This document shows positions 1 to 30,110 of a stretch of DNA of 30,110 nt, piece by piece; within the stretch, counting starts at the first letter, position 1; the number at the start of each line of letters is the position of its first letter. The DNA comes from an uncultured Eubacteriales bacterium (GTDB lineage: Bacteria > Bacillota > Clostridia > Christensenellales > DTU072): the NCBI GenBank assembly GCA_902766325.1, contig CACXDF010000220.1:1-30110 (forward strand). The letters run 5' to 3'. Under the pieces are notes generated by a model. It saw only the letters and a program-made list of their open reading frames with translations. It had not been told where the DNA came from and ran no database searches. A program made the translations under genes and the position numbers.

Positions 1-528
1 TATTTCCGTGTTCGCGCGGTCAAGGGCGAACGAAAGGGCAAGTATTCCGACTGGATCGAAAAGGAGATCGACGCATGGACTTTGTCGAAGCCCGTAGTCA
101 CCGTTAATACTACGACGATGCAGATCTCCTGGACGCCCGTTACCTATCGTTACGAGTACGATTATTCCAAGATCGTATCCGCATACGTTTATCAATACGC
201 CTGGAAGCCCGTGGACGACGAAGATGATAAATTGGAATGGAGAGACGATAAGTCCCTGACTAATTACGTCAGGTTGGATTCGTCTTTGTTGACGTTGAGC
301 GAGTATTTCGATTATCAGTTCAACGATTACGAATGGCCCGGGGATATCACTCTTTATTTTCGGGTGGCCGCGGTAAATCACGGTTACAGTACGCTCGGCG
401 GATTTTCCGATTACGTCGGCGATACGCCGGAAGAGCTTGCGCTCAGAAAGATATATAACGAAGTCGGAGAATACGGAGAGACCTCCGTTACGATAACGAA
501 AGAAATTTTTGACGCTTTATCGAAATAA
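1..528 (+). CDS. 5'-truncated fibronectin type III repeat protein (C-terminal ~175 aa), probably extracellular
   Basis: Frame +1 is open from base 1 (YFRVRAVKGERKGKYSDWIEKEIDAWTLSKPVVT...), so the TTG start at 82 in the track is artefactual. It has two FN3 C-terminal strand motifs (YFRVRAVK..G.YSDW and LYFRVAAVN....GGFSDY) and an FN3 N-terminal motif (LSKPVVTVNTTTMQISWTPV). Stop TAA at 526-528. Confidence 0.75.
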   Translation, partial: YFRVRAVKGERKGKYSDWIEKEIDAWTLSKPVVTVNTTTMQISWTPVTYRYEYDYSKIVSAYVYQYAWKPVDDEDDKLEWRDDKSLTNYVRLDSSLLTLSEYFDYQFNDYEWPGDITLYFRVAAVNHGYSTLGGFSDYVGDTPEELALRKIYNEVGEYGETSVTITKEIFDALSK

Positions 529-554
529 AAGATAAAGTCAGGATAATATAATAT

Positions 555-2378: not shown

Positions 2379-2396
2379 TAACAACAGGAGAGGATT

Positions 2397-3542: not shown

Positions 3543-3573
3543 TTTTTGCACGTTTTTAAATATAAGTGCTTTC

Positions 3574-3602
3574 AAAAAACGCTCTTTTCGAGCGTTTTTT
3601 TT
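3574..3602 (+). terminator. Intrinsic (probably bidirectional) terminator
   Basis: AAAAAACGCTC (3574-3584) - TTTTC loop - GAGCGTTTTTT (3590-3600): perfect 11-bp inverted repeat running into T8, 31 nt after the stop at 3542. Confidence 0.85.
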
Positions 3603-3643
3603 ATCATATGCCTTTCTTAAGGCTTAAAATCCGAGATTGCTCA

Positions 3644-3672
3644 TTGACAAGCATATGCTTTACATTTATAAT
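3644..3672 (+). promoter_or_regulatory. Perfect-consensus sigma70/sigma-A promoter for gene A (and B)
   Basis: TTGACA (3644-3649) - 17 nt - TATAAT (3667-3672), 50 nt upstream of ATG 3723; GGAGG RBS at 3714-3718. Confidence 0.85.
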
Positions 3673-3681
3673 ATAAATGTA
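3649..3681. promoter_or_regulatory. Two abutting dyad elements overlapping the promoter (candidate operators)
   Basis: AAGCATATGCTT (3649-3660) is a perfect 12-bp palindrome in the spacer. TACATTTATA-A-TATAAATGTA (3661-3681) is a perfect 10-bp inverted repeat centred on the -10 box. Confidence 0.55.
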
Positions 3682-3722
3682 TAGGTAGGCTCAAAGTTAT
3701 TTTCTCGCATCTTGGAGGGTAT

Positions 3723-14891: not shown

Positions 14892-14893
14892 TA

Positions 14894-16114
14894 ATGAATA
14901 AAAAGGTCGTTTTTAAATATAAATTTGTTGTTTTTATCGTGTTATTTATTGCGTTGGCGGCGTCGTTTTTATTCGGCGTCGCGCCGCGGGAAAACGCGTA
15001 CGCCGCGCGTCAAAAAGTAATGACCGCGGAACAGTCCGAGGACGTGGTATATTGCGGAAAAAACTTCATCGACGCATCAGGCAAACTATGCGATACGGAC
15101 GTGGACGCGCCCGGTTTTAATAACGATCTTTTTGACTCTTTCGTATTTAAATTGGACGGACAGGAGATCGACGTCTCCGTCGAAGACGTTTTGTTCGAGA
15201 CGATCTCTTCCGTTCAAAATCCCGGTCAATACGCGCTCCCCGTTACCGTTTTTTACGATAACGTCTATTATCGCGTTTCTTCCGTGAATTTTGCTATCAA
15301 AAAGAGAACCGTCACGGTGTTGACGCTTCTGAACGGAAAAACGGATCTGACCGTAAACGAGGGAGATGATATTTCGATCTCGTACGACTATCAGAACGCC
15401 GTTCCGGCGCATACGATGCAAGTATCGCATAACGGGGTATCCGTAACGGAAATCAGATCGGAGTACATTACGATACCGGCATGGACGGACGTCGATATAA
15501 CGAGACCTATCGAAAACTGTCACGTGGTTGCGGCGCATGCGGAAAGCGATTATTACGATTTCGTTTATACGGGCGCTATCCTTACGATCCTGCCCGCCAC
15601 GGTAAAAACGCTTAGTTTTTCGGATGAAAAATCGACGCGTCTCGTACTTGTCGGGGATTTCAGCGTACTTCATTCCATGCGGTATACCGATATCGGGATC
15701 GATCCTTCCGGAGAGGATTTTTCCGTTATCAGCGCCAATGCTGACGTCATCTATAAAGACACCGGATTTTTCGATAAATATGAAAAAAAGGGCTGTTTTT
15801 CAGTCGAAATGTTTTATAATAACAACGTCGTAACGGAAAGCGTACCGGCCGAAGTCGCCATCCTCGCGTCTTCTTTGGATACGTCGAAAAAATACAAGGT
15901 CGTAGCCCTGTATAACAACGGCCGGAGCGAAGTTCTCGACGCAAAATTAAACGACGGATTCTTGCGTTTTAACGCTTCCGATATGGGCGATTTTATTATC
16001 GTTTCCGAGATACAGGGCTTAAGTATAACTTATTACGTTCTTGTGATCGTCGGCGCCGTCGCGCTTATCGTTATCATCATCTTGCTTATTTCTGTTTTTC
16101 GTAGAAAATATTAA
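14894..16114 (+). CDS. Gene B: 406-aa surface protein (signal peptide, 1-2 MBG-like domains, juxtamembrane beta-domain, C-terminal TM)
   Basis: Start overlaps A's tandem stops (TAATAATG, 14889-14896). Signal peptide ends in ENAYA-A. MBG-like QNPGQYALPVTV...AIKKRTVTV and DYYDFVYTGAILTI. TM YYVLVIVGAVALIVIIILLISVF + RRKY. Confidence 0.8.
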   Translation: MNKKVVFKYKFVVFIVLFIALAASFLFGVAPRENAYAARQKVMTAEQSEDVVYCGKNFIDASGKLCDTDVDAPGFNNDLFDSFVFKLDGQEIDVSVEDVLFETISSVQNPGQYALPVTVFYDNVYYRVSSVNFAIKKRTVTVLTLLNGKTDLTVNEGDDISISYDYQNAVPAHTMQVSHNGVSVTEIRSEYITIPAWTDVDITRPIENCHVVAAHAESDYYDFVYTGAILTILPATVKTLSFSDEKSTRLVLVGDFSVLHSMRYTDIGIDPSGEDFSVISANADVIYKDTGFFDKYEKKGCFSVEMFYNNNVVTESVPAEVAILASSLDTSKKYKVVALYNNGRSEVLDAKLNDGFLRFNASDMGDFIIVSEIQGLSITYYVLVIVGAVALIVIIILLISVFRRKY

Positions 16115-16156
16115 AAAAAAAGACGTTTCGGCAACCTTAATTTTTGGATTTTGCTC

Positions 16157-16190
16157 TTGCCTTTCTCGCGCGTGTATGATATTATATTAT
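16157..16190 (+). promoter_or_regulatory. Probable sigma-A promoter for gene C
   Basis: TTGCCT (16157-16162) - 17 nt - TATTAT (16180-16185), preceded by TG-n (extended -10); an alternative TATTAT lies at 16185-16190. GGAGG RBS at 16216-16220. Confidence 0.5.
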
Positions 16191-16224
16191 ATAAGCTATA
16201 GGTATGCCCTTTTTCGGAGGATAT

Positions 16225-19200
16225 ATGATGAGAAAGAAATCCGCTTCGGCACTTTTGATTTTACTGTTGGTTTGCTTCCTTTTGCTGACCTTATTTGCCT
16301 GTAACGACAGGAACGGTATTTCCCAAGAGTCGCCGATACAAAAGATCATCATTACCACTATGCCGAAAACGAATTATTACGTCGGAGATAAGTTCTCCGT
16401 CGGGAATGCCGATATCACCGTTTATTACGAAAACGGAAAGAGCGAACACGTTCCGCTTACGCTCAACATGATCTCCGGTTTCGACTCTAACGTCGTCGGC
16501 GATCAGATCCTTACCGTTTTTTACAAGAACCAGACGGCTTATCTCACCGTTAAAGTCTCCGTTGCTCCCGTTTATTCCGTTCAACTCGTTAATATGCCCG
16601 ATAAAACGAATTACGTTATCGGAGAATCTTTGGACGTCTCCGGGATGAAGATCCTCGTCACGTACAGTAATAACTACACCGAGATCATCGACGTCACCGA
16701 GGATATGATCTCGCTTTTCTCGACTGAAAGAGAAGGCGAGACGGAAATGACGGTATCTTACGGCGGAAAGTCCTGTATGGCTGCTTATTCGGTCGCGACA
16801 AAGACGGCGGACCATATCGAGATCAGTCTCGGCGATTCTTTCCGTATCGCTTACGTCGTCGGCGACGCTTTCGAACTTACCGGCGGCAGCTTTTTTGTCC
16901 ATTACAACGACAACACGTCGGAGTTCCTTGATTGGGACGCTCTTTACGAGCAGGGCGCGCTCACGTACGTTATCGAGAAAGAGACCAACAACGTCTTTAC
17001 TACGTCCGCATTGGAAAGAAACGTGTTTTTATACTACAAGGGAGAAAAATATCAAACGGCCGTTACGGTCGCGGCAAAGCGTCCGCAAGGCATTTCCGTC
17101 ATGTCGGATGCGCCCGATCAAATTTTGAAGGGCCATATCGATCTGACCGGGGGGCAACTCTACGTCGTTTATAACTCGAAACAAACCGGTTACGTCGCCC
17201 GCGTTAAGGACTCTACCGCCGAAGCGCGCCGCGCATACGCAAGCGGCGTCTGGAATACCGCTCGTTCCGCCTATTTCACGCTTAAAAACGGCGAATACGT
17301 CGGCGCCGCGAGCGACTTTGACAATAACGCCGTTTATTATACTTCTTCGGAAACCGCTTTTGCCGATCGCTATCAAACGCGTAAAGAATTTTTGTACGTA
17401 AAAAAGAATTCGACTTTTGAAAAAGCGCCCGAAGAATACGACGCCTCCGTCGTTTATTACATTCCTTCCAACGCTCGTCTTTTCGATTTCGACGATCAGA
17501 TCAACGTCGACGTGGTCTGGAACGATTTTGACATCAACGTCGTCGGAGAGTATTCTATTCGCTTGACCGTAGACGGAGCTTCGCTTGACTATCGCATTAA
17601 GGTTATAGCGCCTTCGCCGATCGCGTTGGAAGTCTATCCGACGGAAGGCGACGTGAACGTGGACGCCGTCACCGGCGCGTATTACGTCTATCAGGACGAG
17701 ACTATCCACGTCACCGACTGGGAATATAAGATCAAACAGAATAACGACACTTATTCCATTATTTCTTCCACAGGCGCTTATTCCGCAAACGTCACTTCGG
17801 AAATGTACGTCGGCAGTACTTTTATGACGAACCACGCCGTAGGAACGTACGACTATGATTTTTCTTTTACGACGGTGACCGGTATCACGCTTCGTTGTTC
17901 CGTGCCCGTGGAAGTTCGTCAAAGAGTTATCGTTTCCGCTACCGTAGTCAATCCGACCAGAGTCGTGTACAGCGTGGGCGACGAGGTCTCTTTGGCGGGC
18001 GGGTCCTTGCGCGTGCGCTATATTAACGGCGTCGAAGGTCAAACGATGTCTTTTACCGCCGATATGCTTTATGCCGAAGATCCTACCGGTAATTCGCCTG
18101 TTCGTTACGTCGCGCAGGACGGTTCCGTCGTTCCTCTCGTAAAAAGCGGCACGGACGCTTTTACCGCGAGCGTGGGAACGAGCAAACTCTATATCTACTA
18201 CGAGGACGCTTATTATAACACCTCTTATGCGACGGAATTCGATATCACCGTTATCGTCAAGGCGATCGCTATCGCTTTGAACGAAGATAAAGAAACCAAA
18301 AACGACTATATCCTCGGAGAAGACTTTTCGATGGCCAATTGGGAAGTCGTCATAACGTACGCCGACCAAAGTTACGCCACGGAAAACGATTTTTCCGACA
18401 GTCGGTGGACGATAGAAGGAAACGATCTCTCTACCGTCGGTACGCACACGATCACCCTTTATTACGGGGATAAGTCCGATAACGTGGCGTTGACGTACGT
18501 CTGTACCGTGCATAACGACATTGTTTCCGTTCGTCCGAACGTCGATTTTATCGGGTGCACGACGGAAGGAAAGGGTTTTGATTTCGAAGGATTGAACTTT
18601 GTGGCCGTCCGTGAAAACGGCGATGAAGAAAACGTTCCTATGGCGGCGATGACGATCTCGAAAACCAAAGCCGGAGCCTATGTTTCCGTTCCGACCGAAT
18701 ACGCGCCCGCTACATTCGTAAACGAAGAAAATTGGTCCGTTTACGGTCTGTCTCTATACGAAAAATCGGGAGGAAGTTACGTTTTTGCGACGGCTTTCGA
18801 CATTTCGAAAGAGTACTACTACGCCGTCGACAATATGACGAATATTTCTTTTACGTACAGCGGAAAAGAAGCGATCGTATCCTCTCTCGTCGTCAGCAGA
18901 CGAGTCGAAAGCGTGTTCGTCGCGGCGTACCCGGAAACGGAATACGTTCTTGCCTCCGCCGGAGAATGGGATCTGAGCGATCTTGTTTTGCAAATAGCTT
19001 TTGATAACGGCACGACGGCCGTCGTTAAGCACGCCGATACCGGCTCGACCGTTACTTTCTCTCAAAGCGGCGACAGGTACGTATTTACGCTCAACAATAT
19101 GACTTATTATTTTGAAGTTAAGACGGAAAGCGGCGTCAATTATTCTTTATCGGACATCAAAAACGACCTGCAATCGCAATCTGCGGAAGAATTTATCGAA

Positions 19201-22200
19201 AAGGATCTTGTATTTTCCGTCGAGGATGTCGCTTATCGCGCTCCCGTTTTTTCCGCTTCCGTTCCGTTCTATTGCTTTAATCAAAAAGTTGTGTCTATCC
19301 ATGCGGAGATCGGCGTACCGGTTGTGAGCGGTTCGGAAGTGATCCGCGTTAACGAATTTACCGATACCACCGTTTATTTGAACGAAGGCCTTGCTCTTTA
19401 TACCGTTTCTTCCAACGGAGAGTATTCTTTCGTGGATGATAACGGTACGAAGAGATTCGTCTATAACGATTCCGTCGTAAAAACCGATTATCTCGATTGC
19501 ATTTATCTTGTCGTCGAGTATGATACGACCACCGTCTACAAAAAACTTGCGGACGTCGCGTCTTCTTCCGGTTTTTCCGTCTCCGGCTACAAAGAGAACA
19601 AAACCGGCGCGCAAACGATCCGTCTTACTTATCTTTTAAAAGATTGCTCTTTTATGGCGTACGTTCGTCCCGACGTTCCGTACGCGATTTCTTTTGTCGA
19701 TGAAAACGGACAAAACGTAACCGAGGCCACCGTGATCGAGAATATGGACATCGATCCTAATAAGATATCCGTATCCGTTGAACTGAGAGACGCCGACGGC
19801 GACGCCGTGGCAACGAGAAGAAAAGTCGATTTTTCCGACGCCGCTTGTACGTATGACAAAACGGAAGCGATCGTCTTTACCGAGAAAAACACCGACGATA
19901 TATTCTACACGCAAAAAACGGTGACGGTCACGTACGAAGGCTGCAGCAAAGATCTTACGCTTACCATTTTAAAGAAATCCGTTTCCGAGATCGTCATTCA
20001 AAACATGCCGAGACAGGTTTATGCGGAATTGCCCGAATTCGCAAGTACGGACGAAAGCGTTCTTTTGTATACCGATTCGAACGGAGAAATAGGCACGATC
20101 CTCGTTCGCTATAATAACGGAACTTCCGAGATCGTCCCGCTCAACGACTCCAGATTGCGCGTCAACGCGGCCCAATTCAATACCAAACTCGTGTTGAATG
20201 ACGGCGCGGAACAATCTCAGATCATTACCATCGGTTTTACCGATGAAAACAACGTTACGAAAGAAACGCATTATAACGTTATCGTACGCGACAGAAAGTA
20301 CCTGACTATCAGTTATGACAGTTCGAATAATCTGTCTTTTGATAACGTCTATTATTGTCAATACGGTACCGGAGCCGACGCAAGACCGAAATTCGACGTA
20401 TATTACTATTCCGACTTTTACATGAACGCGCCCGTCGCGTTTAACGGTTACAGCGTGAAGTACGAGTATCACGACGACGTTTTGGGCGACGTGACTCGTA
20501 CCGTTTGGCCGACAGAAGTAGGGCGTTATACGATGGTCGTTTCTTACGCGGGCGACTATGCCAATAACGCTTTCGAGGATAGATCGGTCACCATCGAGAT
20601 CACCAAAAAGCAGATCGGTATTTCCGTGGAAGATATGAGCCTTACGTTCGGGGATAAGTTTTCCGGGACGGCGACGGACGTCACGTCTTTGCGCGCGCTC
20701 GGTTTTACTTGGAATATGAGCGGCGTAACGGGCGGACGACTGACCGGGGACGCTTTTGTGCTCGGCGACACCCTCGACAACGTCGTATCCGTGTCTTTCG
20801 AGCTGCAAAAGGACGGTCGAAAGGTCGATCCCGCGTTCAGCGGAGATAACTCTTATCTCGTTATGACTCTGAACGTCGGCAGCTACTATATCAAGCCCAT
20901 CATTACGCTGAAAAAGGCGAACTACACCGTCCCCGAAGGGGTAGGCGATCTCGGAGCGACTCTTACCGTCGTGAAAAAAGCCATTAAGATCGTCGCGCTT
21001 GACGAAAAGAAGGTATACGGCGATCGCGATCCCGTTTATCGTTTTGAAATCTACGATGAAACCGATAATCTGCTCGGCGGTAACTATTATCGCGAATTGA
21101 CCGGGTATACCGTCGGCGATCCCGTGGCGGAAAGCGTCTTTATTTGCGATCCCGTTACCGGGATATATTCTCAAGCGGCGGGAACATACGAATCCGGGAA
21201 GACCTATTACGTATTCAAAGCGGAGATCGAAATCGATCCGATCTTCGTCGATACCGCTTCTTCGTCGTACAGATTGGTCCGTTCCGGGACGGATACGGAT
21301 AACGTCAACGACTATCACAGGATCTTTAACGGCGACACGGAAGGAACGCTCGATAACTATTCTTTGATCGATTACAGCTATGCTTCTTTGATCGTTTTGC
21401 CTGCGGAACTTACGTTGACCGCAAGCAGGACGACTCGTCCTTTCGGTACGGCCGATATGTCGATCGATTATATCGCCGCCGCGACTTCTTCGTTCAAATA
21501 CAACGACGATTTTGATTCCGTTTTCGGACCGTATTTTACGCAAAGCGCCGTATTATACTACGATATGACGGGAAAGAGCGTGTACGAGACTTTAACGGAA
21601 GGCCTTTCTTCTTACGACGATTGGGCCGTATTATATCGTAATCTGGAGATTGACGGATTCGAGTCGGTCGTTTATATGGGCGCGACCTATGCGGTCGTGC
21701 CGATCGCTCTTGCCTGCGGGACGTATACGTGTCGTATGAGCGACGTTTATTCGGACGTAGTGAAGAACTATATCGTCACGACGCAACCGTTTGAAATGGA
21801 GATACTTCCTATCGGCGTTCGTCTGAACGTCGGTTCCGTTCTGCTTTACGAAAAATCTTTGATCAAAGACGGCAGAAGAAATGCTTTTATCGACTATTTC
21901 TCTTTCCCGAGAGAAGAGTTTTTGACGGTCAATATTTACGGCGAAACGCTCACTTTCTCCGATTTCGTTTTTTCAGTCGATAATCGTGACGATATCGAAA
22001 ACCTGTATGCGGATTGGATGTCGAAACTGATCGTCGGCGCCGAATACGAGACCGGTACCGGCTCGAAATATTTGCTCAGTTCCGACTTTTTGAGCGGTTT
22101 TACGTTCATAAAAGAACGCGGAACGGACACGGGCGTCTATCGGGTCTCCGTCGGATATAACTATTCCGATAACTTCTCCGATTTCAGCGTTATCAGTCGA

Positions 22201-25200
22201 AACGAAGATAAAAACAAGAATTATTTCTCATTCTACTATGACATTTTCCGCAATCAGTACGCGCAGGTGTCTACCATGCAGGCGACTGCCTACGATACGG
22301 ACGCATACGTGATCGTTTTGCCCGGATTTGCCGATTTGAAGTATTATAAAGTCGACGAAGACGGCAAGAGATATCAAGAAGTCTATAATCTCAATAAGGC
22401 ATCCTCTTGGGGATTGAACGCAGAATACAGCGTCGACCAAGAAAATTATTACGGTATGTCCTCCATCGGAACGGACAGCGTTACTTATTCTATTACGCCG
22501 AAAGCGGGAACGCAATTTATCGTGTATAACCGCGAGAATTGTCTTGCCGCGGGCGACTATACGGGTTCCGTCACGTATTCTTATTTTGCCGACGTGAACA
22601 AATCGTCGAAGTTTTCGACAAACTATATCTATCTCGGTAATATGAGCGTGCTTTTGGATAGCGATATCGCCTCCGTCCTCAATTACGTTTTGTTCGGAAC
22701 GGTGACGGACGGCGCGTTGACGTTCAATAATACTTTTGATTATACCGTTACGCAAAAACCCGTTAGCGTATACATAGAAAACGGCGACGTCCAATATAAT
22801 TTTGCCAATCAAACGCTTATCGCTCGCGTGGACGGAAGTTTGGCCGAAGGCGACAGATTGAACTTTTTATTCGACGTTTCCGTCGTCTATAACAGCAAGA
22901 CGGACGTCGTAAATAAAAACGCGTCCACGATCAGGAGTTTCAAGTATTATTCCGTTGTCCCGGAAGAACTTTTAACGCGCGAGAACCTGCCGACTTATTA
23001 CGAATACGGTTCGAGAGGATTTGTGTTGACGCAAGATACCATCCCCATGAATCGTAAGGCGTACTATCTGCTCACAGAGGCGTCGGATCCGTCGGTCGAG
23101 GCCTACGATATCGCGTATTCCGGCACTTATACGGTCAGATTAAACGATCTTGGGAACGCCAATTATTGCCTCGAAACGGACGAAACGGTTCAAAAGACGT
23201 TTGCCGTCGTGCCGAACGAAATACCGATCCTGTTATATAACAAAGCGGCTATGCCGCAGGTCTCCACGACCGATTTTACTTTTGAAGAGACGTATGCCAA
23301 AAAGGCTTTCTCGCCCATCGATTACAGCTGGACGTCCACGACCTACGCCAACTCCTTGCTGTTCGACAGTATCGATCTTAGCCAGCTTTCTTCCGTTAAT
23401 TCTTCTGCGACGAGGAAGATCGGTACGGCTGCGATCGGCGGCCAAACATACGACGTCAACGTTAAGTTCCGCGGTACGTTCCCGAGCCTGACGGTGACCG
23501 GTCGCACGATCAGTATCTCCGGAAGCAACGGCAGAACGCTCGCGCAGGATACCTATTCGTCCGAGTACGACTATTATTTCTATTTTGTGGACGGCGGAAA
23601 CGAACGCAAGGTCTATTACGACGCCGGAACGGGTTCGTATTATTACAAAGATGCGCCGTATACGACTTTCAAAACGACTACCTGTACGATAACCGACTAT
23701 TACTTCGACGAAAACGGCGTTTTACATCGTCCCCAACCGCTTGTCAATACGCCGAACACGTTGTTTATTTATTCGGAAGACGAGCCCGGCTCCGGCAACA
23801 GACCCGTTTACGTCAAACGCGACCCCGATACGAAGAGGGTGCTCGGTTATGACATCGTATCGAGAGATACTTCCGACTACGTCAACTATACCGTCGTATT
23901 CGTCTATTTGGACAACGGCGTATACAGAGAATGCGACGACGCGCATCTGTTCTCCTTTGTGATCAATCCGGCGGAAGTTTCGCTCTATAATTTCTCGTCC
24001 GCGAATACGAAGGATTACGACGGTATCGACGCCGCTATCGCAAATACCTCGAAATTGACCGTCAACGGCGCTCTGTCCAACGATCCGATCAGCGTGTCGG
24101 ATATCCAATTCGACTTCGAGCGTATCGATGCGGAAGGTTCTACTTATATTACGATCGGCGGAGTCAGATATTATCTCGTGGAAAACGACGATATGAGCAG
24201 CGTCGGCTTGTTTAAAGTGAGAGCGTTTTATTCCGATAACTACGAGATCGTCTTTAAAGGAAACGGCGCTTATAACGGCTCTCCGTCTCCGTACGGCTTA
24301 TATACCATCAAGAGAGTCAAAGCCACATTTGAATTTAATAACGAGATCGCGGCTTATCTCTCCAAGGACTACGACGGATCCGGGCTTACGGACGAGACCT
24401 TGCTTTATTCCGGCGATCTGACCGAATTCGTCGATCGGGGATATAACGTGATCAGTAAACAAAGTAAGACCATCGTCGATAATTTTTCCGATATACGGTA
24501 TCAACTTCAAGTGAAAGGATATGCTTCCGTTTTCGGCGGGACGCCGACCGCTATCGCTCAAAATCAGATCGCCGGTTATAACTATTCCGCCGGAGTTTAT
24601 TGGTTTGACTTCTACGGCGTTTTCGTAGACAAAGACGGTAATTATCGTCGGTACGAGGACAGAAGCAATAAAGAAGAGGGCGAAAACCGGTGGTTGAACT
24701 GGAACTATACCTATATCGTCAACAACAAGAAAGACGTCAATAAGATCGGAGACGTCTATTACGACGGTATTTATCAGATCGATAAGAGAAAAGTATATAT
24801 CGGTATCGACGGACAATTACCCGCGAATGCGACGGATACTTCGTATACCTATACGAAAGAGTACAACGGCACGACGATCACCAGATCGACGATCAATACC
24901 TGGCTCGATAGCGGCGTCGTCACCGTCTATATCTACGATGCGGTCAAAAAGGATTTCGTTCCCGTGAAAGATACCGATTTCGCCGATTCTTTCGTCGGAG
25001 GCAGCGTATCCGTCAGCGGCGGAAGAGAATCGATCACGAATGTGTCGAGTTCCGAATACTTCGAGCTGAGCGCGTCCGATATCGCGACCAACAATACCGA
25101 CTTTATCATCGTCAACTCCGATATCCGCTTTATGTTGAAAGCGATCGAGATCGAGATCATGTTGACTTATACCAATGCGGATAGCGGAAACTCCGCTTCG

Positions 25201-28200
25201 ATCACGTACGGCAAAACGGCCAGAGAAAACGCCGTTAACTTTACGCTCAGTATTTCGGAAGAGGAATTGAAAAAGTTCAACGAAGCCATTCAGGACGGCA
25301 ACACCTATACCGCTACGCAAATACTCGAAAAAGTATGTAATTTCAATAACGCCGAGTTCTATCTTTTCGGTGCCGATAATCCGGCGAACGCCGTGTTCCG
25401 CTTCTCTTTGGAAGGGAAATCGCAGTCGTTCTATCTTTACGATAAAGCGGGCGACTATTATTACGAAGCGGCCGACGGTACGTACCGTGACGATACGACC
25501 TACTACAGCAGATTGCTCGTTCCTGCGGGGACTGCTCTTGATTATACGAAGTACTATGTCTACCACGAATGGTACGAACGCACTTCCGATCCCGTATCCG
25601 TCGCCGGAAAGAAGTATTATTTGATGGAACAAGTCACGGAGAGCGACCCCAATTTCCGCGCGGGAAGCGGCGTGCCGGAAGACAGATACTTTGAACAATT
25701 CTATCACTATACGTTCACGACGGATACCGTCTTCCGTCCCAACGTATCTTATTATAAGCGTAATCCGGGAACGAACGTTTACCGCCTCGTCGATACGTCG
25801 GCTTTGCTCGGTTCTTCCGTTCCGGCGGAGACCTATTATACGCAAAATGGTTATTACGCTTTAACGACGGACCGTATATTCAATTTGCAAAAGAGATATT
25901 ATACTGCGGCGGAATACGTATTCACAGCGCAAAACGCCACGACCACCGCGAATATCTATTACGAAATGAATAAGTATTACGGTGAAAACGAAGACGATTA
26001 CTTTATGTCCGGAAAAGATTATTACGTCTTTACCGTCGTGCCTGCGTCGGGATCCATGGTGGGCGTCAACGTGCAGGCCGAAACCTATTATGAACGGGTC
26101 GGCGATAGATTCGTCCTTACTTCCGATCTTACTTTCGTTCGTTCGAAATTGTATAACGGTCAATACTATACGGTAAGCATTGCCGACGTCATCCGCGGAG
26201 ATAACGCTCATAAAAAGTATTATACGTATTCAAGCGGCAGACATATCAGAGTGCCGGACGGCACCGTACGTCAGGCCGGCGTATCGTATTACGTCTTTAT
26301 TCCCACGGTATACTCGGAAAAAGAGGTCGTTACCGAATACTATTATTACTATTCCGACGGAAAATTCTTTAACGTGTACGATATGCGTCAAGAATTGGAC
26401 GGCGATAAGAACTATTACGTTGGGTACATAGCCGACAAGACGGCAAACGAAAACGTAGCGTACTATACGGAATACGAGGCGATCGTAAAGGCGGAAGGCG
26501 CGCGCGAAAACGGCAGATACTATTATAAAGCCGTCTTAATGGATCCCACCGAAGATACCGATACGTATTATGCGGTCAAAAGATTGCTTCCGGGTAAGGA
26601 TTATGCGTTGAACGGGCTTATTCCGTCCGGCAGCGTGTACGAAAACGTCGACGACAGCGATACCTACTATCTTACGTCCGACACTCGTTATTCCGCAAAC
26701 AAAAACTATTACAGACTGTCCGTTGTGTCCGGAGAACTCGTTGCCGGCGATAAGGTCGGTAGCTATTATATCGTTTCGCAAGGTTATTCTCGCGCGGGAA
26801 GCTCTTTCGAGAACACCGAAAATACTTATTATAAGGTTATCGAGGCTGTAGCCGGCAAGGATTACGCCGTTTCTTCCTTGATCCCCGACTCTACCTATTA
26901 TACGAAAGTAGACGGCGAAGACAGATACGCCTTTGCGCAGTCCCGCATTTTTGCCGCCAACGAGAGATATTATTTGTTCGAAGCGATCCACGGCGTATCA
27001 AGCGTATATTCGATGTCCGCGCTTTTCACTCTCAACGACGGAAGTTATAAAAAGATCGTTGCGCTTACGTCCGGAAAAGAATACGTTAACGGCGCGATGA
27101 TAGGCGCTGACGAAGTATACTACAAAAGCAACGACAGATATGTAAGAGAAACTGCGTTAAAGTACAGAAAAGGCGTAGAATATTATCATTTTGTCACGGC
27201 CGAAGGCTATATCGCCAATTCTGCTTTGAGCGACTATTACGTGGATTCTTCCGCGCGATATACGATCCGTGAGATGACGGCGGGGATTGATTATTCGATA
27301 GGTCAAACCATCGGTGAAAACGTAGTTTCGGCTGATTCTTTCGAGAAGTCGAACGACGTCGAGTATCTTGCCGGGAAGTTGTATTACGGATACGACAACG
27401 ACGGCTATGTTTCCGGCGCGCTGATCGGAACCTATTCCGTGCCGGCGGATGGTTTCTATTCAATAAAAGTCAAAAGCGGATACACGGTCGGGCAGATCGT
27501 TCAACAGGACGTCTTTGTGTTGTCGGGCGATCGCTATAAAAACGTAAGAGGCAGTACCTATCGTTCCGGCGTTACCTATTATGCGTTTACGGAGGCAAGC
27601 GGGTTTATTCCCAAGAGGAATATTGATGATTATTATGTTTCGGGGCGCGGTTATTATTCCGCCGTTTTGATGACGAAAGGCGTTGATTACGTAGTCAATA
27701 CGCCTGTTGCGGAAGGCGTATACAGATTGATCGGCGGCAGGATGATCGCCGTTCCGACTACGGATAACTTTGCCGACGGAATCGTATACTACTTCCTTGA
27801 CGACGCGGGATTTATTCCTTATTCCGACCGCGCAGATTATTATGTGGACGGACGAGGATATTATTCCAAAAAGAGATTATCGCTCGGCGTTGACTATTCC
27901 GTCGGCGACAGTATCGGAAGCGGCGTCTACGTTTATCGTCTCGGCAGATACGTTTTGCCGGAAGAACTGACGTTCCGTTCCGGTTACGATTATTACTTAA
28001 TGGATAACGTGGGTCTTGTTTTAGGCAGCGAGATCGTTTCTTATTGCATTACGGGCGAAAAATACTATTCCTTCACGTTGCAAACGCCGACGGAAGGCGA
28101 TCGTATCGAAGGCGACGTCTTTGAAAAAGAATCCGCGGTATTTATTCCCACTACGGATACGGTGTATCGTAGCGGAAAAGAGTATTATTTACGTTCGAAC

Positions 28201-30110
28201 GCCGGTCTTGTCGATCCGGCCGATTTGTCGTCCTATTACGTCGACGCGACGGGGTGTTATACCTTGGTCGAGCAGGAAGAGGACGTCTCTTATTCCGTAG
28301 GAGATCCCGTTCCGAGCAATATGTATTATGAGATCACGGCGGATGGGATTTGTCGCTATACAAGGGACGAGACCTTTATTTCCGGCAAAAAGTATTACGT
28401 ATTCCGCGCCGATAACACGTATTTGCCGGCAGATGCGGACGTAACGTCTTATTATTTTGAAAACGTTTCCGATTACGGCGTTCGCGCGTTGATCGCAGGT
28501 AAAGATTATACGGTCGGCGACGCTGTGTCCGATAATACGTATACCGTCGACGATAAGTGGTACACCTGTCTTACTTCGGGTGTTTATGAGCAAAACAAGC
28601 GTTACTTTATCTTAGAAGCCGCTTCGGGCTATATCCGTTCGGGCGATCTTCCGACAACGTTCGTCAAGAGCGGAAGCGATCGGTTTATGGCCGTTCTTCT
28701 GAAAAATTATACCATCGGCGCGGCGATCCCGAATAACACGTTCTATACGCTTGCTCCCGACGGAAGATTGATCTACGCAAGCGGAGTATTCGTCGAGGGT
28801 ACGGACTATTACGCCAAATCGACGAACGGTTTTGCGTACGGCGCGAATGAAACCGAGCTGTATATCGTCGACAGCAGATATAACAGCTTTTACGAGAAAG
28901 ACACGACTTCTCTTAACGGAACGTCCGCCGTCGGCAGTTATGTCCGCAAAGAGGACGGCAGAATGGTCGCCGTAACTTCCGGAAACTATACGACCGGCGT
29001 TACTTATTACGAAAGCGTCAATATCGGTCTCGTACAGATCGCGCGGCTCGGCGACTACTACGTATCAGGTTCGGGTCGATATTCCGTAGAAAAAACGGCG
29101 TTTTCTACCGACGCTTACGTTTATTTAAAGAACGGAGAATACGTCAAGACGACGGATGCTACGGCAAAGGACGGTACCTCTTATTATCGCTTCTTTACGG
29201 GCGGATTCGTGCAGAATAAGTATTATTCGCAATACTACGTTCCTACCGAGGTGTTCAGAACGGATAAAGTCATTTACGAACACTATCGATACGGAAACGA
29301 CGTTCCTTATGCGGTAGAGAACGAAACGGACGATTTCTATTCGAAAACGGTACCCGGTCGCGTATATGAAAAAGACGGCGATAAGTACTATACGACTTCC
29401 GACGCTGTATTCGTCGTCGGTAAAGAGTATTATTTGTTCGTTCCCGTGACCGATTTTTCCGACAGAGAAACGACGGACGGCTTATACGTGTTCAGAAAAG
29501 GATACGTCCGCTCTCAACTGTCTTACGCCGCGCTCAGAAAGGCGGTACCGGGCGTTGATTATCAGATCGGTAGGTTCGTTTCGGGCGGGTTCTTTACTTT
29601 GAACGCAAATTCCGTACCGTTCGAAGTGCCCGGCGGCAGTATGTTCTCAGCCGATACCGTTTATTATCGTCTGAACGATTATTACGGCATTACGTCGATC
29701 CCGATCTATTACGAACAGAACGTAGACGGGTCGTATTCGGTCACGACCGACCGTACTTTCAATAACGCGAAGAGCTATTATGCGTTTACCGAAGAATCGG
29801 TCGTAGTCGGCGATATGATCCCGCAAGGTTTCTATTTTGTGAAGAGCGGCACCGACTTTGTCGAAACCACGGAAGAGACCTTCCTGCAAGACGTCGATTA
29901 TTATACCGTAAGAATGGTAAGCGTGACCAACGGCGCTTACGTTGTGAACGGATTGTACGAGAAAGCGGGCGATATCTACGTCGTTACCGGCGATACCGTC
30001 ATGGATGGAAACAAGTCGTATTATCGTTTTGCTAAAGATAACTCGGTAAGCAACTCCGATCCCGTCTTATTGTATGAAAAAGTGGGCGACGAGTACGTTC
30101 TTACGAGCGA
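16225..30110 (+). CDS. Gene C: 3'-truncated giant lipoprotein (>4628 aa): Big_3-like array, MBG/YDG-like domains, Tyr-rich repeat array; absent from the ORF track
   Basis: Frame +1 from ATG 16225 (alternative ATG 16228) read by hand to base 30110 with no stop. MMRKKSASALLILLLVCFLLLTLFA-C26 (Cys codon 16300-16302) is a type II signal with lipobox. Next come Big_3-type units (ITTMPKTNYYVGDKFSVGNADITVYYENGKSEHVPLTLNMISGFDSNVVGDQILTVFY; NMPDKTNYVIGESLDVSGMKILVTYSNN), then MBG (PTEVGRYTMVVSYAGD; KKVYGDRDP) and YDG-like (TKDYDG, SKDYDG, TKEYNG) units. Confidence 0.88.
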   Translation, partial: MMRKKSASALLILLLVCFLLLTLFACNDRNGISQESPIQKIIITTMPKTNYYVGDKFSVGNADITVYYENGKSEHVPLTLNMISGFDSNVVGDQILTVFYKNQTAYLTVKVSVAPVYSVQLVNMPDKTNYVIGESLDVSGMKILVTYSNNYTEIIDVTEDMISLFSTEREGETEMTVSYGGKSCMAAYSVATKTADHIEISLGDSFRIAYVVGDAFELTGGSFFVHYNDNTSEFLDWDALYEQGALTYVIEKETNNVFTTSALERNVFLYYKGEKYQTAVTVAAKRPQGISVMSDAPDQILKGHIDLTGGQLYVVYNSKQTGYVARVKDSTAEARRAYASGVWNTARSAYFTLKNGEYVGAASDFDNNAVYYTSSETAFADRYQTRKEFLYVKKNSTFEKAPEEYDASVVYYIPSNARLFDFDDQINVDVVWNDFDINVVGEYSIRLTVDGASLDYRIKVIAPSPIALEVYPTEGDVNVDAVTGAYYVYQDETIHVTDWEYKIKQNNDTYSIISSTGAYSANVTSEMYVGSTFMTNHAVGTYDYDFSFTTVTGITLRCSVPVEVRQRVIVSATVVNPTRVVYSVGDEVSLAGGSLRVRYINGVEGQTMSFTADMLYAEDPTGNSPVRYVAQDGSVVPLVKSGTDAFTASVGTSKLYIYYEDAYYNTSYATEFDITVIVKAIAIALNEDKETKNDYILGEDFSMANWEVVITYADQSYATENDFSDSRWTIEGNDLSTVGTHTITLYYGDKSDNVALTYVCTVHNDIVSVRPNVDFIGCTTEGKGFDFEGLNFVAVRENGDEENVPMAAMTISKTKAGAYVSVPTEYAPATFVNEENWSVYGLSLYEKSGGSYVFATAFDISKEYYYAVDNMTNISFTYSGKEAIVSSLVVSRRVESVFVAAYPETEYVLASAGEWDLSDLVLQIAFDNGTTAVVKHADTGSTVTFSQSGDRYVFTLNNMTYYFEVKTESGVNYSLSDIKNDLQSQSAEEFIEKDLVFSVEDVAYRAPVFSASVPFYCFNQKVVSIHAEIGVPVVSGSEVIRVNEFTDTTVYLNEGLALYTVSSNGEYSFVDDNGTKRFVYNDSVVKTDYLDCIYLVVEYDTTTVYKKLADVASSSGFSVSGYKENKTGAQTIRLTYLLKDCSFMAYVRPDVPYAISFVDENGQNVTEATVIENMDIDPNKISVSVELRDADGDAVATRRKVDFSDAACTYDKTEAIVFTEKNTDDIFYTQKTVTVTYEGCSKDLTLTILKKSVSEIVIQNMPRQVYAELPEFASTDESVLLYTDSNGEIGTILVRYNNGTSEIVPLNDSRLRVNAAQFNTKLVLNDGAEQSQIITIGFTDENNVTKETHYNVIVRDRKYLTISYDSSNNLSFDNVYYCQYGTGADARPKFDVYYYSDFYMNAPVAFNGYSVKYEYHDDVLGDVTRTVWPTEVGRYTMVVSYAGDYANNAFEDRSVTIEITKKQIGISVEDMSLTFGDKFSGTATDVTSLRALGFTWNMSGVTGGRLTGDAFVLGDTLDNVVSVSFELQKDGRKVDPAFSGDNSYLVMTLNVGSYYIKPIITLKKANYTVPEGVGDLGATLTVVKKAIKIVALDEKKVYGDRDPVYRFEIYDETDNLLGGNYYRELTGYTVGDPVAESVFICDPVTGIYSQAAGTYESGKTYYVFKAEIEIDPIFVDTASSSYRLVRSGTDTDNVNDYHRIFNGDTEGTLDNYSLIDYSYASLIVLPAELTLTASRTTRPFGTADMSIDYIAAATSSFKYNDDFDSVFGPYFTQSAVLYYDMTGKSVYETLTEGLSSYDDWAVLYRNLEIDGFESVVYMGATYAVVPIALACGTYTCRMSDVYSDVVKNYIVTTQPFEMEILPIGVRLNVGSVLLYEKSLIKDGRRNAFIDYFSFPREEFLTVNIYGETLTFSDFVFSVDNRDDIENLYADWMSKLIVGAEYETGTGSKYLLSSDFLSGFTFIKERGTDTGVYRVSVGYNYSDNFSDFSVISRNEDKNKNYFSFYYDIFRNQYAQVSTMQATAYDTDAYVIVLPGFADLKYYKVDEDGKRYQEVYNLNKASSWGLNAEYSVDQENYYGMSSIGTDSVTYSITPKAGTQFIVYNRENCLAAGDYTGSVTYSYFADVNKSSKFSTNYIYLGNMSVLLDSDIASVLNYVLFGTVTDGALTFNNTFDYTVTQKPVSVYIENGDVQYNFANQTLIARVDGSLAEGDRLNFLFDVSVVYNSKTDVVNKNASTIRSFKYYSVVPEELLTRENLPTYYEYGSRGFVLTQDTIPMNRKAYYLLTEASDPSVEAYDIAYSGTYTVRLNDLGNANYCLETDETVQKTFAVVPNEIPILLYNKAAMPQVSTTDFTFEETYAKKAFSPIDYSWTSTTYANSLLFDSIDLSQLSSVNSSATRKIGTAAIGGQTYDVNVKFRGTFPSLTVTGRTISISGSNGRTLAQDTYSSEYDYYFYFVDGGNERKVYYDAGTGSYYYKDAPYTTFKTTTCTITDYYFDENGVLHRPQPLVNTPNTLFIYSEDEPGSGNRPVYVKRDPDTKRVLGYDIVSRDTSDYVNYTVVFVYLDNGVYRECDDAHLFSFVINPAEVSLYNFSSANTKDYDGIDAAIANTSKLTVNGALSNDPISVSDIQFDFERIDAEGSTYITIGGVRYYLVENDDMSSVGLFKVRAFYSDNYEIVFKGNGAYNGSPSPYGLYTIKRVKATFEFNNEIAAYLSKDYDGSGLTDETLLYSGDLTEFVDRGYNVISKQSKTIVDNFSDIRYQLQVKGYASVFGGTPTAIAQNQIAGYNYSAGVYWFDFYGVFVDKDGNYRRYEDRSNKEEGENRWLNWNYTYIVNNKKDVNKIGDVYYDGIYQIDKRKVYIGIDGQLPANATDTSYTYTKEYNGTTITRSTINTWLDSGVVTVYIYDAVKKDFVPVKDTDFADSFVGGSVSVSGGRESITNVSSSEYFELSASDIATNNTDFIIVNSDIRFMLKAIEIEIMLTYTNADSGNSASITYGKTARENAVNFTLSISEEELKKFNEAIQDGNTYTATQILEKVCNFNNAEFYLFGADNPANAVFRFSLEGKSQSFYLYDKAGDYYYEAADGTYRDDTTYYSRLLVPAGTALDYTKYYVYHEWYERTSDPVSVAGKKYYLMEQVTESDPNFRAGSGVPEDRYFEQFYHYTFTTDTVFRPNVSYYKRNPGTNVYRLVDTSALLGSSVPAETYYTQNGYYALTTDRIFNLQKRYYTAAEYVFTAQNATTTANIYYEMNKYYGENEDDYFMSGKDYYVFTVVPASGSMVGVNVQAETYYERVGDRFVLTSDLTFVRSKLYNGQYYTVSIADVIRGDNAHKKYYTYSSGRHIRVPDGTVRQAGVSYYVFIPTVYSEKEVVTEYYYYYSDGKFFNVYDMRQELDGDKNYYVGYIADKTANENVAYYTEYEAIVKAEGARENGRYYYKAVLMDPTEDTDTYYAVKRLLPGKDYALNGLIPSGSVYENVDDSDTYYLTSDTRYSANKNYYRLSVVSGELVAGDKVGSYYIVSQGYSRAGSSFENTENTYYKVIEAVAGKDYAVSSLIPDSTYYTKVDGEDRYAFAQSRIFAANERYYLFEAIHGVSSVYSMSALFTLNDGSYKKIVALTSGKEYVNGAMIGADEVYYKSNDRYVRETALKYRKGVEYYHFVTAEGYIANSALSDYYVDSSARYTIREMTAGIDYSIGQTIGENVVSADSFEKSNDVEYLAGKLYYGYDNDGYVSGALIGTYSVPADGFYSIKVKSGYTVGQIVQQDVFVLSGDRYKNVRGSTYRSGVTYYAFTEASGFIPKRNIDDYYVSGRGYYSAVLMTKGVDYVVNTPVAEGVYRLIGGRMIAVPTTDNFADGIVYYFLDDAGFIPYSDRADYYVDGRGYYSKKRLSLGVDYSVGDSIGSGVYVYRLGRYVLPEELTFRSGYDYYLMDNVGLVLGSEIVSYCITGEKYYSFTLQTPTEGDRIEGDVFEKESAVFIPTTDTVYRSGKEYYLRSNAGLVDPADLSSYYVDATGCYTLVEQEEDVSYSVGDPVPSNMYYEITADGICRYTRDETFISGKKYYVFRADNTYLPADADVTSYYFENVSDYGVRALIAGKDYTVGDAVSDNTYTVDDKWYTCLTSGVYEQNKRYFILEAASGYIRSGDLPTTFVKSGSDRFMAVLLKNYTIGAAIPNNTFYTLAPDGRLIYASGVFVEGTDYYAKSTNGFAYGANETELYIVDSRYNSFYEKDTTSLNGTSAVGSYVRKEDGRMVAVTSGNYTTGVTYYESVNIGLVQIARLGDYYVSGSGRYSVEKTAFSTDAYVYLKNGEYVKTTDATAKDGTSYYRFFTGGFVQNKYYSQYYVPTEVFRTDKVIYEHYRYGNDVPYAVENETDDFYSKTVPGRVYEKDGDKYYTTSDAVFVVGKEYYLFVPVTDFSDRETTDGLYVFRKGYVRSQLSYAALRKAVPGVDYQIGRFVSGGFFTLNANSVPFEVPGGSMFSADTVYYRLNDYYGITSIPIYYEQNVDGSYSVTTDRTFNNAKSYYAFTEESVVVGDMIPQGFYFVKSGTDFVETTEETFLQDVDYYTVRMVSVTNGAYVVNGLYEKAGDIYVVTGDTVMDGNKSYYRFAKDNSVSNSDPVLLYEKVGDEYVLTS
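16333..20290 (+). repeat. Tandem array of about 12 bacterial Ig-like (Big_3-type) domains in gene C
   Basis: Recurrent P-x-K/R-T-x-Y-x-x-G-(D/E)...(V/L)-x-Y-x-(N/D)-G...G-x-(Q/Y/H)-x-(I/L)-T-(V/L)-x-Y pattern. Units 1-2 are canonical; later ones are degenerate and expanded. Count is approximate. Confidence 0.7.
25429..30110 (+). repeat. Degenerate Tyr-rich protein repeat array (about 30 units, continues past the window end)
   Basis: Recurrent G-x-D-Y-x-V-G-x-x-(I/V)...(Y/F)Y...Y-x-x-T-x-D-x-x-F-x-x-G-K-x-Y-Y, e.g. TSDPVSVAGKKYY, TTDRIFNLQKRYY, TTDTVYRSGKEYY, TRDETFISGKKYY, TSDAVFVVGKEYY, TTDRTFNNAKSYY. Repeats are evident in protein, not as identical DNA. Confidence 0.85.

Follow-up and report, generated by a model that had tools for sequence, protein, structure and literature searches.

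A giant predicted lipoprotein of an uncultured Clostridia bacterium, proposed to be a membrane-tethered fibrillar adhesin with a lectin-type C-terminal tip

The final 14 kb of the window (the whole stretch of DNA that was analysed, 30,110 nt in length) are the first ~71% of a genuine, conserved giant gene. In our view, the gene product is most consistently interpreted as a membrane-tethered fibrillar adhesin with an N-terminal lipid anchor and a C-terminal lectin-type tip, a reading to which we assign a probability of roughly 0.6. In the host, an uncultured Clostridia bacterium of apparently monoderm type, the precursor would be exported by Sec; Lgt would place diacylglycerol on Cys26 and LspA would cut off the signal peptide, leaving the mature protein attached at its N-terminus to the outer surface of the cell membrane. 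A chain of Big_3 domains, divergent MBG/YDG-like modules and a Tyr-rich rod of 68-residue units would form a stalk that crosses the wall and extends past it. At its far tip, this stalk would display two C-terminal concanavalin-A-like (lectin/LG-fold) domains, whose ligand may be a glycan carried by host mucus, by particles of the diet or by other cells.

When open ends are allowed, the ORF listing gives a forward-strand ORF of 4,635 aa at 16204..30108 that is open at its 3′ end. Translation from 16225 yields 4,628 residues with no stop up to the contig end, as the preliminary description had read for frame +1. The features of this region are as follows.

16157..16185, forward strand: promoter-like site (TTGCCT, 17-nt spacer, TATTAT, with TG ahead of the −10 element)
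16216..16220, forward strand: Shine–Dalgarno sequence GGAGG, 4 nt ahead of the ATG at 16225 and 7 nt ahead of the ATG at 16228
16225..30108, forward strand: 5′ part of the giant lipoprotein gene, 4,628 codons (~71% of the gene), cut by the contig end
16225..16302, forward strand: predicted Sec/SPII-type signal peptide, with an n-region holding R and two K, a 17-residue hydrophobic core and the lipobox T-L-F-A-C
16300–16302, forward strand: TGT codon of the lipobox Cys26, at the end of the signal peptide
17029..18513, reverse strand: antisense shadow ORF (494 aa), one of eight in the same antisense frame
16291–16902, 17029–18513, 19147–19614 and 19969–21543, reverse strand: antisense shadow ORFs of the upstream half, all in this single frame
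22228–22812, 24298–24816, 24817–25845 and 26536–26991, reverse strand: antisense shadow ORFs of the downstream half, in the same frame

The ribosome-binding site that had been proposed is read directly at 16216–16220. Tandem ATG codons at 16225 and 16228 are the candidate starts; the Shine–Dalgarno spacing slightly favours 16228, and among the orthologues both MRKK and MMRKK are seen as first residues. The promoter-like site is compatible with a promoter but alone is not significant (one seen against 1.3 expected in shuffled sequence). As open reading frames the antisense ORFs are genuine (151–524 aa), and their earlier description as shadows is borne out. Over 13.9 kb their frame contains 35 stops, compared with 250 and 351 in the other two antisense frames, and these 35 are exactly the sense-frame codons TTA (27), CTA (1) and TCA (7) among 4,628; the long antisense ORFs thus fall in one frame because these codons are rare in the sense frame. 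Since the other four frames carry 157–351 stops each, the openness of frame +1 is far beyond chance. The gene had also been called unannotated and hidden, which cannot be maintained: the source ORF list merely leaves out ORFs that run off the contig, and called orthologue proteins of 3,968–7,521 aa are present in the public ENA, NCBI and Logan collections.

The frame is under purifying selection. Comparison with the 81%-identical orthologue P0004 from the relative G010 gives 597, 443 and 2006 substitutions at first, second and third codon positions, respectively, with 1,531 synonymous and 866 non-synonymous codon differences. Nine homologues (P0003–P0011) were found with E ≤ 5e-114, all from Clostridia metagenome-assembled genomes (for example on JAEDHK010000005.1 and CAMOOO010000001.1) and none named or studied. 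The closest (P0003) has 6,510 aa, 83% identity and 100% coverage, and the second closest has 6,509 aa, 81% identity and 100% coverage. P0003–P0008 (5,796–7,521 aa) are collinear over their full length, while the shorter relatives P0009–P0011 (3,968–4,495 aa) have both ends in common with them, cover 46–49% of the window's piece and, in these ~4-kaa forms, fall to 25–28% identity. Stalk units have been gained and lost, hence the differences in length; each of the nine homologues carries the lipobox and, at its C-terminus, the pair of domains. Stop-free frames of 3,720–7,473 aa occur in 10 of 24 species of the genus, and full-length orthologues are intact on contigs that range from 174 kb to 973 kb.

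A scan of a collection of genome contigs returned only two loci. The missing gene end lies on a second contig of the window's own assembly: on contig C161, positions 2–5593 correspond to P0003 residues 4646–6510 at 82% identity and encode 1,864 aa and a stop (P0012), followed by tsaE and tsaB. The contig of the window (C220) ends at P0003 residue 4625; the gap is therefore ~20 aa and the full-length protein would have ~6,510 aa. Comparison of the contig ends gave no overlap, and we infer the join from the collinearity of the orthologues. The window's piece exceeds 500 kDa even alone, in agreement with the size first proposed, and the mature protein with the C161 piece would reach ~725 kDa. The suggestion that an extension might reveal the stop and a terminal effector or toxin held for the stop, found on C161, but searches of the C-terminus turned up neither a toxin nor an effector domain.

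Three regions of the stalk can be distinguished within the window.

16360..20259 (aa 46–1345), forward strand: membrane-proximal stalk of at least nine Big_3-type Ig-like units (Pfam PF07523), some with long inserts
aa 46–111, 125–190, 206–282, 305–341 and 577–668: first five Big_3 units, from an iterated HMM
aa 691–758, 782–817, 1095–1147 and 1290–1345: last four Big_3 units, from the same iterated HMM
20593..25434 (aa 1457–3070), forward strand: ~11–12 divergent β units, MBG/YDG-like at sub-threshold level only
25438..30108 (aa 3072–4628), forward strand: Tyr-rich array of at least 24 units of a 68-position profile, continuing into contig C161
27586..28398 (aa 3788–4058), forward strand: four consecutive 68-aa Tyr-rich units, modelled with AlphaFold2

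The Big_3 block lies within a few tens of nucleotides of where it had been placed (~16333–20290). The Pfam search gives 68.4 bits over three stretches (cut-off 21.2), and the genome search gives 45.1, 37.7 and 26.1 bits. The catalogue of fibrillar-adhesin stalk domains includes Big_3 (PMC8286594). Pfam searches of ten 500-aa pieces at E values up to 5 found nothing besides Big_3, and the NCBIfam search gave no match. A sequence search of the PDB with the window's piece returned only the Big_3-like entry 2l7y and two Ig domains of LRR proteins, and the C-terminal piece gave no match.

The central region had been described as MBG/YDG-like (20290–25400); there is a weak signal within the block, but support for the label is sub-threshold only. 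An alternating hydrophobic strand forms the start of each unit, and in many cases a Y-[GDN]-G motif comes next; the unit length, inserts included, is 115–160 aa. Against the Pfam gathering threshold of 25 bits for MBG_2 (PF18676), YDG (PF18657) and MBG_3 (PF18887), MBG_2 scores 16.2 bits at 20983–21207 and YDG scores 23.0 bits at 23998–24165; MBG_3 gives no match in the giant ORF. Bona fide MBG_2, YDG and MBG_3 domains, as known from giant surface proteins of Bacillota, do occur in other giant ORFs of the same genome. With a profile built from these, hhalign gave 70.6% for the unit at aa 1580–1725 and at most 13% for the others, and HMMER did not pick up the giant lipoprotein. The region resembles MBG/YDG domains in its opening strand and Y-D/G-G pattern and gives near-threshold matches, but its units are longer than the Pfam models (72–85 positions) and none reaches a curated cut-off. 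Pfam also gave no match in the central regions of the orthologues. For P0012 residues 60–1265, the ESM Atlas led to YDG, Flg_new_2 and MBG clusters at 0.82–0.88, which is below the 0.9 level. Some 2,800 residues (aa 1457–3070 and the ~1,200 residues ahead of the tip, P0012 47–1265) are without a confident domain match.

The Tyr-rich array begins at aa 3072 (nt 25438), close to the ~25429 first given, and has a Tyr content of 12–16%. In the confident AlphaFold2 model each unit is predicted to form a short helix and about five β-strands, and no structural match was found in the libraries searched. The array likewise has no Pfam or NCBIfam match and no usable ESM Atlas feature match. It contains no DNA-level tandem repeat of the kind that could mis-assemble.

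The AlphaFold2 model of the last 600 residues of the protein (pLDDT 79.7, pTM 0.81) shows two lectin-fold β-sandwiches. Foldseek matches this tip best to pairs of LG or galectin domains in tandem (E = 2.5e-5), among them LG pairs of laminin and neurexin. The modelled β-jelly-roll sandwich superposes on known members of the concanavalin-A-like lectin/glucanase fold; for the second domain, the main backing is tandem Foldseek matches whose TM-scores are low. By fold alone, the tip probably consists of concanavalin-A-like (lectin/LG-fold) domains. The last 514 aa have no Pfam or NCBIfam match at E ≤ 1 save a chance-level hit to DUF6139, so that Bact_lectin, Lectin_legB and Laminin_G are all absent, and profile–profile comparison found no further concanavalin-A-like modules upstream. 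When the last 1,200 aa were searched exhaustively with HMMER against 1.84 billion representatives, only seven proteins came back, all of the protein's own family. Identity to P0005 drops from 62% in the proximal part to ~33% in the distal part, as would be expected for an exposed tip.

The protein had been considered exceptionally large. Its own genome (1.7 Mb, 313 contigs, 85% complete) argues otherwise, with 13 or more ORFs of ≥1,000 aa that carry a lipobox, their [AG]-C lying 20–35 residues from a K/R-rich start, and Clostridia gut proteins of 10,000–30,000 aa have been described (bioRxiv 10.1101/2023.11.21.568195). The giant lipoprotein is one of many giants in its lineage, not a one-off. 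A literature search on giant bacterial lipoproteins returned plasma-lipoprotein papers only. Stop-to-stop ORFs of ≥1,000 aa, many with lipoboxes, make up 17.8% of the genome's bases, which suggests a dense surface layer and would suit a different role for the same surface lipoprotein: a structural or spacing one (coat, glycocalyx-like brush or cell–cell cohesion), exerted together with the neighbouring doubly membrane-anchored giant of 3,722 aa and with LG-like protein contacts at the tip. The gene order (BipA, 384 aa, 3,724 aa, ~406 aa, giant lipoprotein) is kept in the G010 relative, the neighbouring giant and further giant ORFs contain Tyr-rich units as well, and the laminin and neurexin LG pairs among the best Foldseek matches bind proteins as well as glycans. 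However, the distal divergence and the patchy presence among the species better fit a variable ligand-binding adhesin, and no S-layer or SLH-type domains were found. We consider the structural role clearly less probable than adhesion.

With regard to the anchor, we infer with good support that the protein is a predicted Sec/SPII lipoprotein tethered to the membrane. The N-terminus MMRKKSASALLILLLVCFLLLTLFAC fits the lipoprotein rule (PROSITE PS51257-type), by which a positively charged n-region and a hydrophobic h-region precede a lipobox Cys ~15–35 residues from the start; it divides into MMRKKSAS, ALLILLLVCFLLLTLFA and Cys26. The T-L-F-A-C lipobox first noted is therefore confirmed as a pattern, and its Cys is kept in all ten homologues checked; P0003–P0011 all close their hydrophobic segment with [FLV][AS]C, down to 25% identity. 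Lgt (PF01790, 175.2 bits, contig C44) and LspA (PF01252, 125.5 bits, contig C268) are both present in the genome. No sortase (PF04203) was detected in 28 genomes of the genus, 18 of which are at least 90% complete, so that LPXTG anchoring appears to be unavailable; the C-terminus, ending in ...KDYSTYDVRNANE, has neither an LPXTG motif nor a hydrophobic tail. No Omp85 was found.

Cleavage by signal peptidase I after L-F-A would instead give a secreted giant that is released or non-covalently held. The Ala at −1 and the hydrophobic core suit this enzyme, and four orthologues (P0003, P0004, P0005 and P0013) fail the strict PROSITE pattern, having Cys at lipobox position −3 (CFAC). We consider type I cleavage unlikely, since the Cys at +1 is invariant at 25–83% identity while the flanking residues vary, the 13 or more other large ORFs show the same [AG]-C arrangement in a genome with Lgt and LspA, and family searches of both protein pieces found no alternative anchor (LPXTG, SLH, LysM or choline-binding).

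Concanavalin-A-like folds are also found in glycanases, lyases and purely protein-binding LG domains. The distal domain could be a tethered enzyme (a GH16-type glycanase or PL7-type lyase) on a polysaccharide-degrading fibre; this is less probable still, as the GH16 motif E-x-D-x(1,2)-E occurs nowhere in the C-terminal 1,864 aa, the 16-sequence tip alignment contains no invariant Glu and the C-terminal piece matches no glycoside-hydrolase or lyase family. That the frame is non-functional, whether as a pseudogene in decay or as a chimera of repeats created during assembly, might be suspected from the fragmented assembly and the break at a contig end inside a repeat array, but is largely refuted by the stop-free 13.9 kb, the purifying selection, the intact orthologues on long contigs and the lack of DNA-level repeats.

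Gram-positive fibrillar adhesins have been catalogued almost entirely as sortase-anchored proteins with an N-terminal tip. The adhesin that we propose would have the reverse polarity, in keeping with a genus whose searched genomes yielded no sortase. Of the features set out for fibrillar adhesins by Monzon et al. (2021; PMC8286594), it has a tandem-repeat stalk and, in the predicted lipid anchor, a surface anchor, and the tip pair would be the candidate for an adhesive domain distal to that anchor; lipoproteins are not among the anchor types listed in that survey, and the word is absent from its main text. The nearest known counterparts with an L-type lectin module are the Gram-positive fibrillar adhesins SraP from Staphylococcus aureus (PDB entries 4m00 and 4m01) and Aap from S. 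epidermidis (PDB entries 8deo and 8g1l). In these the lectin is N-terminal and the LPXTG anchor C-terminal, whereas the giant lipoprotein has a predicted N-terminal lipid anchor and C-terminal tip, is 2–3 times longer, builds its main rod from a repeat without known relative and has no sequence match to Bact_lectin or any known adhesive Pfam domain. It resembles the giants of West-Roberts et al. (bioRxiv 10.1101/2023.11.21.568195) in being a very large, repetitive, mostly unannotated predicted surface protein from a gut-type Clostridia metagenome-assembled genome. [quoted passage not shown]

We propose that the family represents a lipid-anchored, C-terminal-tip version of the fibrillar adhesin in gut-type Clostridia. 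Domain-based surveys would miss it. Some 85% of the protein is without a Pfam match, and lipoprotein anchors lie outside those surveyed. Giant genes are routinely split across contigs, and the two halves here could be re-joined through orthologue collinearity alone. The Tyr-rich unit, with a confident model and no library match, offers a concrete structural target, and the predicted glycan binding by the tip is a testable hypothesis for small-genome uncultured bacteria with a heavy surface investment. As a more tentative suggestion, the 68-aa unit may be a new fold that stacks into a rigid rod, arose within the genus and spread among its giants. More broadly, this small-genome genus, in which no sortase was detected, may have turned the Gram-positive adhesin around, with the lipid anchor at the start and the lectin tip at the end, and may devote 10–20% of its genome to such fibres. 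If this were true, the genus would be expected to live obligately attached or as an epibiont.

Translation of the giant ORF from 16225 gave 4,628 residues with zero stops and the N-terminus MMRKKSASALLILLLVCFLLLTLFAC-NDRNG. The coordinates and features listed in a preliminary description of this DNA (open frame, ribosome-binding site, lipobox and domain blocks) are all present in the window; its impression of a hidden ORF was an effect of an ORF list that omits frames which leave the source. The frame and its start are as follows.

16204-30108, + strand: open frame of 4,635 aa, 3'-open, in an open-ended ORF listing
16216-16220, + strand: GGAGG, followed by ATAT and by ATG ATG at 16225 and 16228, read from the sequence

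Nine homologues emerged from a word-indexed search of 5.8 billion proteins. The two nearest, at 83% (6,510 aa) and 81% (6,509 aa) identity, have 100% coverage; next come proteins of 6,784, 7,521, 6,434 and 5,796 aa, which share 43-52% identity, and the shortest, of 3,968-4,495 aa, with 25-28%. A codon-by-codon alignment of the gene with its orthologue in the relative G010 showed 597 differences at first, 443 at second and 2,006 at third codon positions. The C-terminal domain was matched within stop-free frames of 3,720-7,473 aa in ten of 24 other species of the genus and in no genome among 16 that represent other families of the same order. The locus order (BipA, an ORF of ~381-384 aa, a giant of 3,722/3,724 aa, an ORF of ~406 aa and the giant lipoprotein) is the same in G010, with ~80% identity, as judged by comparing window 555-16114 with G010:C12:43500-83499; Pfam matched neither the 381-aa nor the 406-aa ORF. 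The giant ORF is a real gene, intact, selected and conserved, as the stop-free frame, orthologues at 81-83% identity and the excess of third-position substitutions show. What the preliminary description observed is confirmed, and its interpretation is supported in part.

Eight antisense ORFs of 151-524 aa overlie the giant gene, all in one antisense frame. The stops of this frame correspond to sense TTA, CTA and TCA, which occur 27, 1 and 7 times in the 4,628 codons. It is because these codons are so rare, CTA (1 of 256 Leu codons in 16225-30108) and TCA (7 of 390 Ser codons) being strongly avoided, that the codon-aligned antisense frame has only 35 stops in 13.9 kb, giving shadow ORFs of at most 574 codons from stop to stop; the remaining antisense and sense frames have 157-351 stops each. 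The eight are classical shadow ORFs.

The window is the complete contig C220, the longest in a 313-contig assembly (1.73 Mb, 85% complete, GC 0.488), and the truncation of the gene is therefore a contig end and not biological. In a tblastn search of the same genome with the 6,510-aa orthologue, residues 1-4625 matched C220:16228-30108 and residues 4646-6510 matched C161:2-5593, the latter with 82% identity. Contig C161 supplies 1,864 more residues and a stop, followed by two housekeeping genes.

C161 5583-6643: tsaE, with its ATG at 5583 overlapping the last codons and stop (5594-5596) of the giant gene, and tsaB directly after

Given this overlap and the adjacent tsaB, the giant gene is embedded in housekeeping genes, with no obvious mobile island. 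The unassembled gap between the contigs is ~20 residues (60 nt) and falls within the Tyr-rich array; the contig ends share no sequence overlap. From the collinearity of the two pieces with the orthologue, we infer that C220 and C161 join to encode a protein of ~6,510 aa. Its known mature residues (6,467) amount to 724.5 kDa, with a pI of 4.5 and 9.8% Tyr. Following the gene onto C161, in line with the extension proposed in the preliminary description, reached the stop and the C-terminal domains, and no toxin-like end of the kind that it envisaged was found on the C161 piece.

Pfam detected only Big_3 on the giant protein (68.4 bits), and a within-family iterated HMM resolved nine Big_3 units at aa 46-1345. 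Residues ~1457-3070 form about 11-12 units, an alternating hydrophobic strand coming first and Y-[GDN]-G often next. This central region gave 16.2 bits for MBG_2 (nt 20983-21207) and 23.0 bits for YDG against a cut-off of 25 (nt 23998-24165), while hhalign of the units with an MBG profile returned a probability of 70.6% for one and ≤13% for the others; Pfam found nothing in the central regions of the orthologues. The domain blocks first proposed hold for Big_3 and for the Tyr repeats, and support for the MBG/YDG label of the central units is weak. MBG_2, YDG and MBG_3 do exceed Pfam cut-offs in other giant ORFs of this genome (on C5, C239, C79, C211, C298, C129, C38 and C10), which therefore mixes recognizable and unrecognizable stalk modules.

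The Tyr-rich array (12-16% Tyr) starts at aa 3072, occupies the rest of C220 and continues on C161 up to residue 46 of that piece. A 68-position profile identified 24 units within the window, with a consensus of roughly ...G-[FY]-[IV]...YY-v-x-G-x-G-YY...[VD]-Y-x-[VG]-x-x-[IV]...VY...R...F/Y-x-x-G-x-x-YY. An AlphaFold2 model of four units (13-row alignment; pLDDT 92.4, pTM 0.76) predicts a short helix and about five strands per unit. The profile matches six other giant ORFs of the genome and had no match at E ≤ 1e-5 in 197 genomes from 118 other genera of the order. No tandem repeat was found at the DNA level in the array, and the units are therefore old and diverged. In one homologue, P0008, most of the array is missing, and aligned identity over aa 3500-4500 is 0-11%. 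Single or half copies of the unit also occur in isolation within other domains, both in the giant protein and in its 3,722-aa neighbour.

Window 21085-21210 (aa 1622-1662): copy outside the main array
C161 piece, residues 802-824 and 1412-1462: copies outside the main array
Window 7245-7388, 9177-9386, 9408-9509 and 11187-11315: copies in the neighbouring protein

The first of these interrupts the middle of the sole unit resembling MBG_2, which is why the MBG_2 match covers only its first half.

Residues 47-1265 of the C161 piece (~1,200 residues) gave only language-model leads below 0.9, to YDG, Flg_new_2 and MBG clusters. A model of the C-terminal 600 residues, built on a 16-row alignment (pLDDT 79.7, pTM 0.81), best matched tandem LG and tandem galectin pairs in Foldseek (E 2.5e-5). 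Lectin-fold domains are thus predicted at the far end of a repetitive body rich in beta structure; for the second half of the tip, weaker evidence suggests a similar sandwich. Exhaustive HMMER searching of the last 1,200 aa against 1.84 billion representatives returned seven proteins, all family members. In full-length alignment with the homologues P0005 to P0008, identity falls steadily from 52-62% at the membrane-proximal N-terminus to 17-45% in the distal third (for P0005, from 62% to ~33%), a gradient consistent with a conserved base that carries an exposed, fast-evolving tip.

The N-terminus conforms to a PROSITE-type lipoprotein rule, with Cys26, and genes for the processing enzymes Lgt (175 bits) and LspA (125 bits) occur in the genome. 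Neither LPXTG nor a hydrophobic tail is present at the C-terminus, and Omp85 was not found in the genome, as expected for a monoderm. On sequence grounds, the gene very probably encodes a lipoprotein. We propose that Sec would export the precursor, that Lgt and LspA would process it and tether it through Cys26, that the Big_3, MBG-like and Tyr-rich modules would form a stalk that keeps the C-terminal end well away from the membrane, and that the tip may bind a carbohydrate-bearing surface.

Among the alternatives, all less likely, the leading one is a structural surface layer formed together with the neighbouring giant, a protein with TM segments at both termini in the window and in G010; the shared locus order favours it, and the divergence of the distal end speaks against it. 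A secreted, SPI-cleaved protein is less favoured. In its favour, the strict lipoprotein pattern is not matched by four close orthologues, in which Cys occupies position -3 (CFAC); against it, the hydrophobic segment ends in a Cys preceded by [FLV][AS] in all homologues. A tethered glycanase would suit the sandwich folds, yet the C-terminal piece lacks the GH16 catalytic motif and the 16-row tip alignment contains no invariant Glu. An artefactual open frame is at odds with the 1,531 synonymous versus 866 non-synonymous codon differences from the G010 orthologue.

Monzon et al. defined fibrillar adhesins, with Big_3 listed as a stalk domain, and found the adhesive domains of Gram-positive examples mostly N-terminal and the anchors C-terminal; they searched no lipoprotein anchor and questioned the function of a lectin C-terminal to the stalk (PMC8286594). 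The giant protein would work in the manner of these adhesins but differs from them in its reversed polarity, its predicted lipid anchor and a stalk mostly unseen by Pfam, and we class it as a probable fibrillar adhesin of reverse polarity, held by a lipid and built around a Tyr-rich rod that is specific to the lineage. Its size alone is unexceptional, because Clostridia gut proteins of 10-30 kaa, with other repeat types, have been reported (10.1101/2023.11.21.568195).

Within the lineage, too, the protein is not the exceptionally large lipoprotein first supposed: in its genome, no fewer than 13 ORFs of ≥1,000 aa open with a signal that is K/R-rich and hydrophobic and has an [AG]-C lipobox, for example C15:932-11497 and C162:6866-14146 and 14146-20397, with others on C98, C198, C310, C49, C184, C90, C68, C226 and C175. 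Stop-to-stop ORFs of ≥1,000 aa occupy 17.8% of the 1.73-Mb assembly, a figure that is slightly too high because a small number of shadow and housekeeping ORFs are counted. Many contigs consist solely of one giant-ORF fragment. A search of 28 genomes from the genus (18 with ≥90% completeness) found no sortase domain (PF04203); giant surface proteins of the genus carry lipoboxes or TM helices in place of sortase signals. Because so many giants of this genome share one signal type and sortase was not found, lipid anchoring looks like the lineage's standard solution for very large proteins, of which the giant protein is the largest assembled example.
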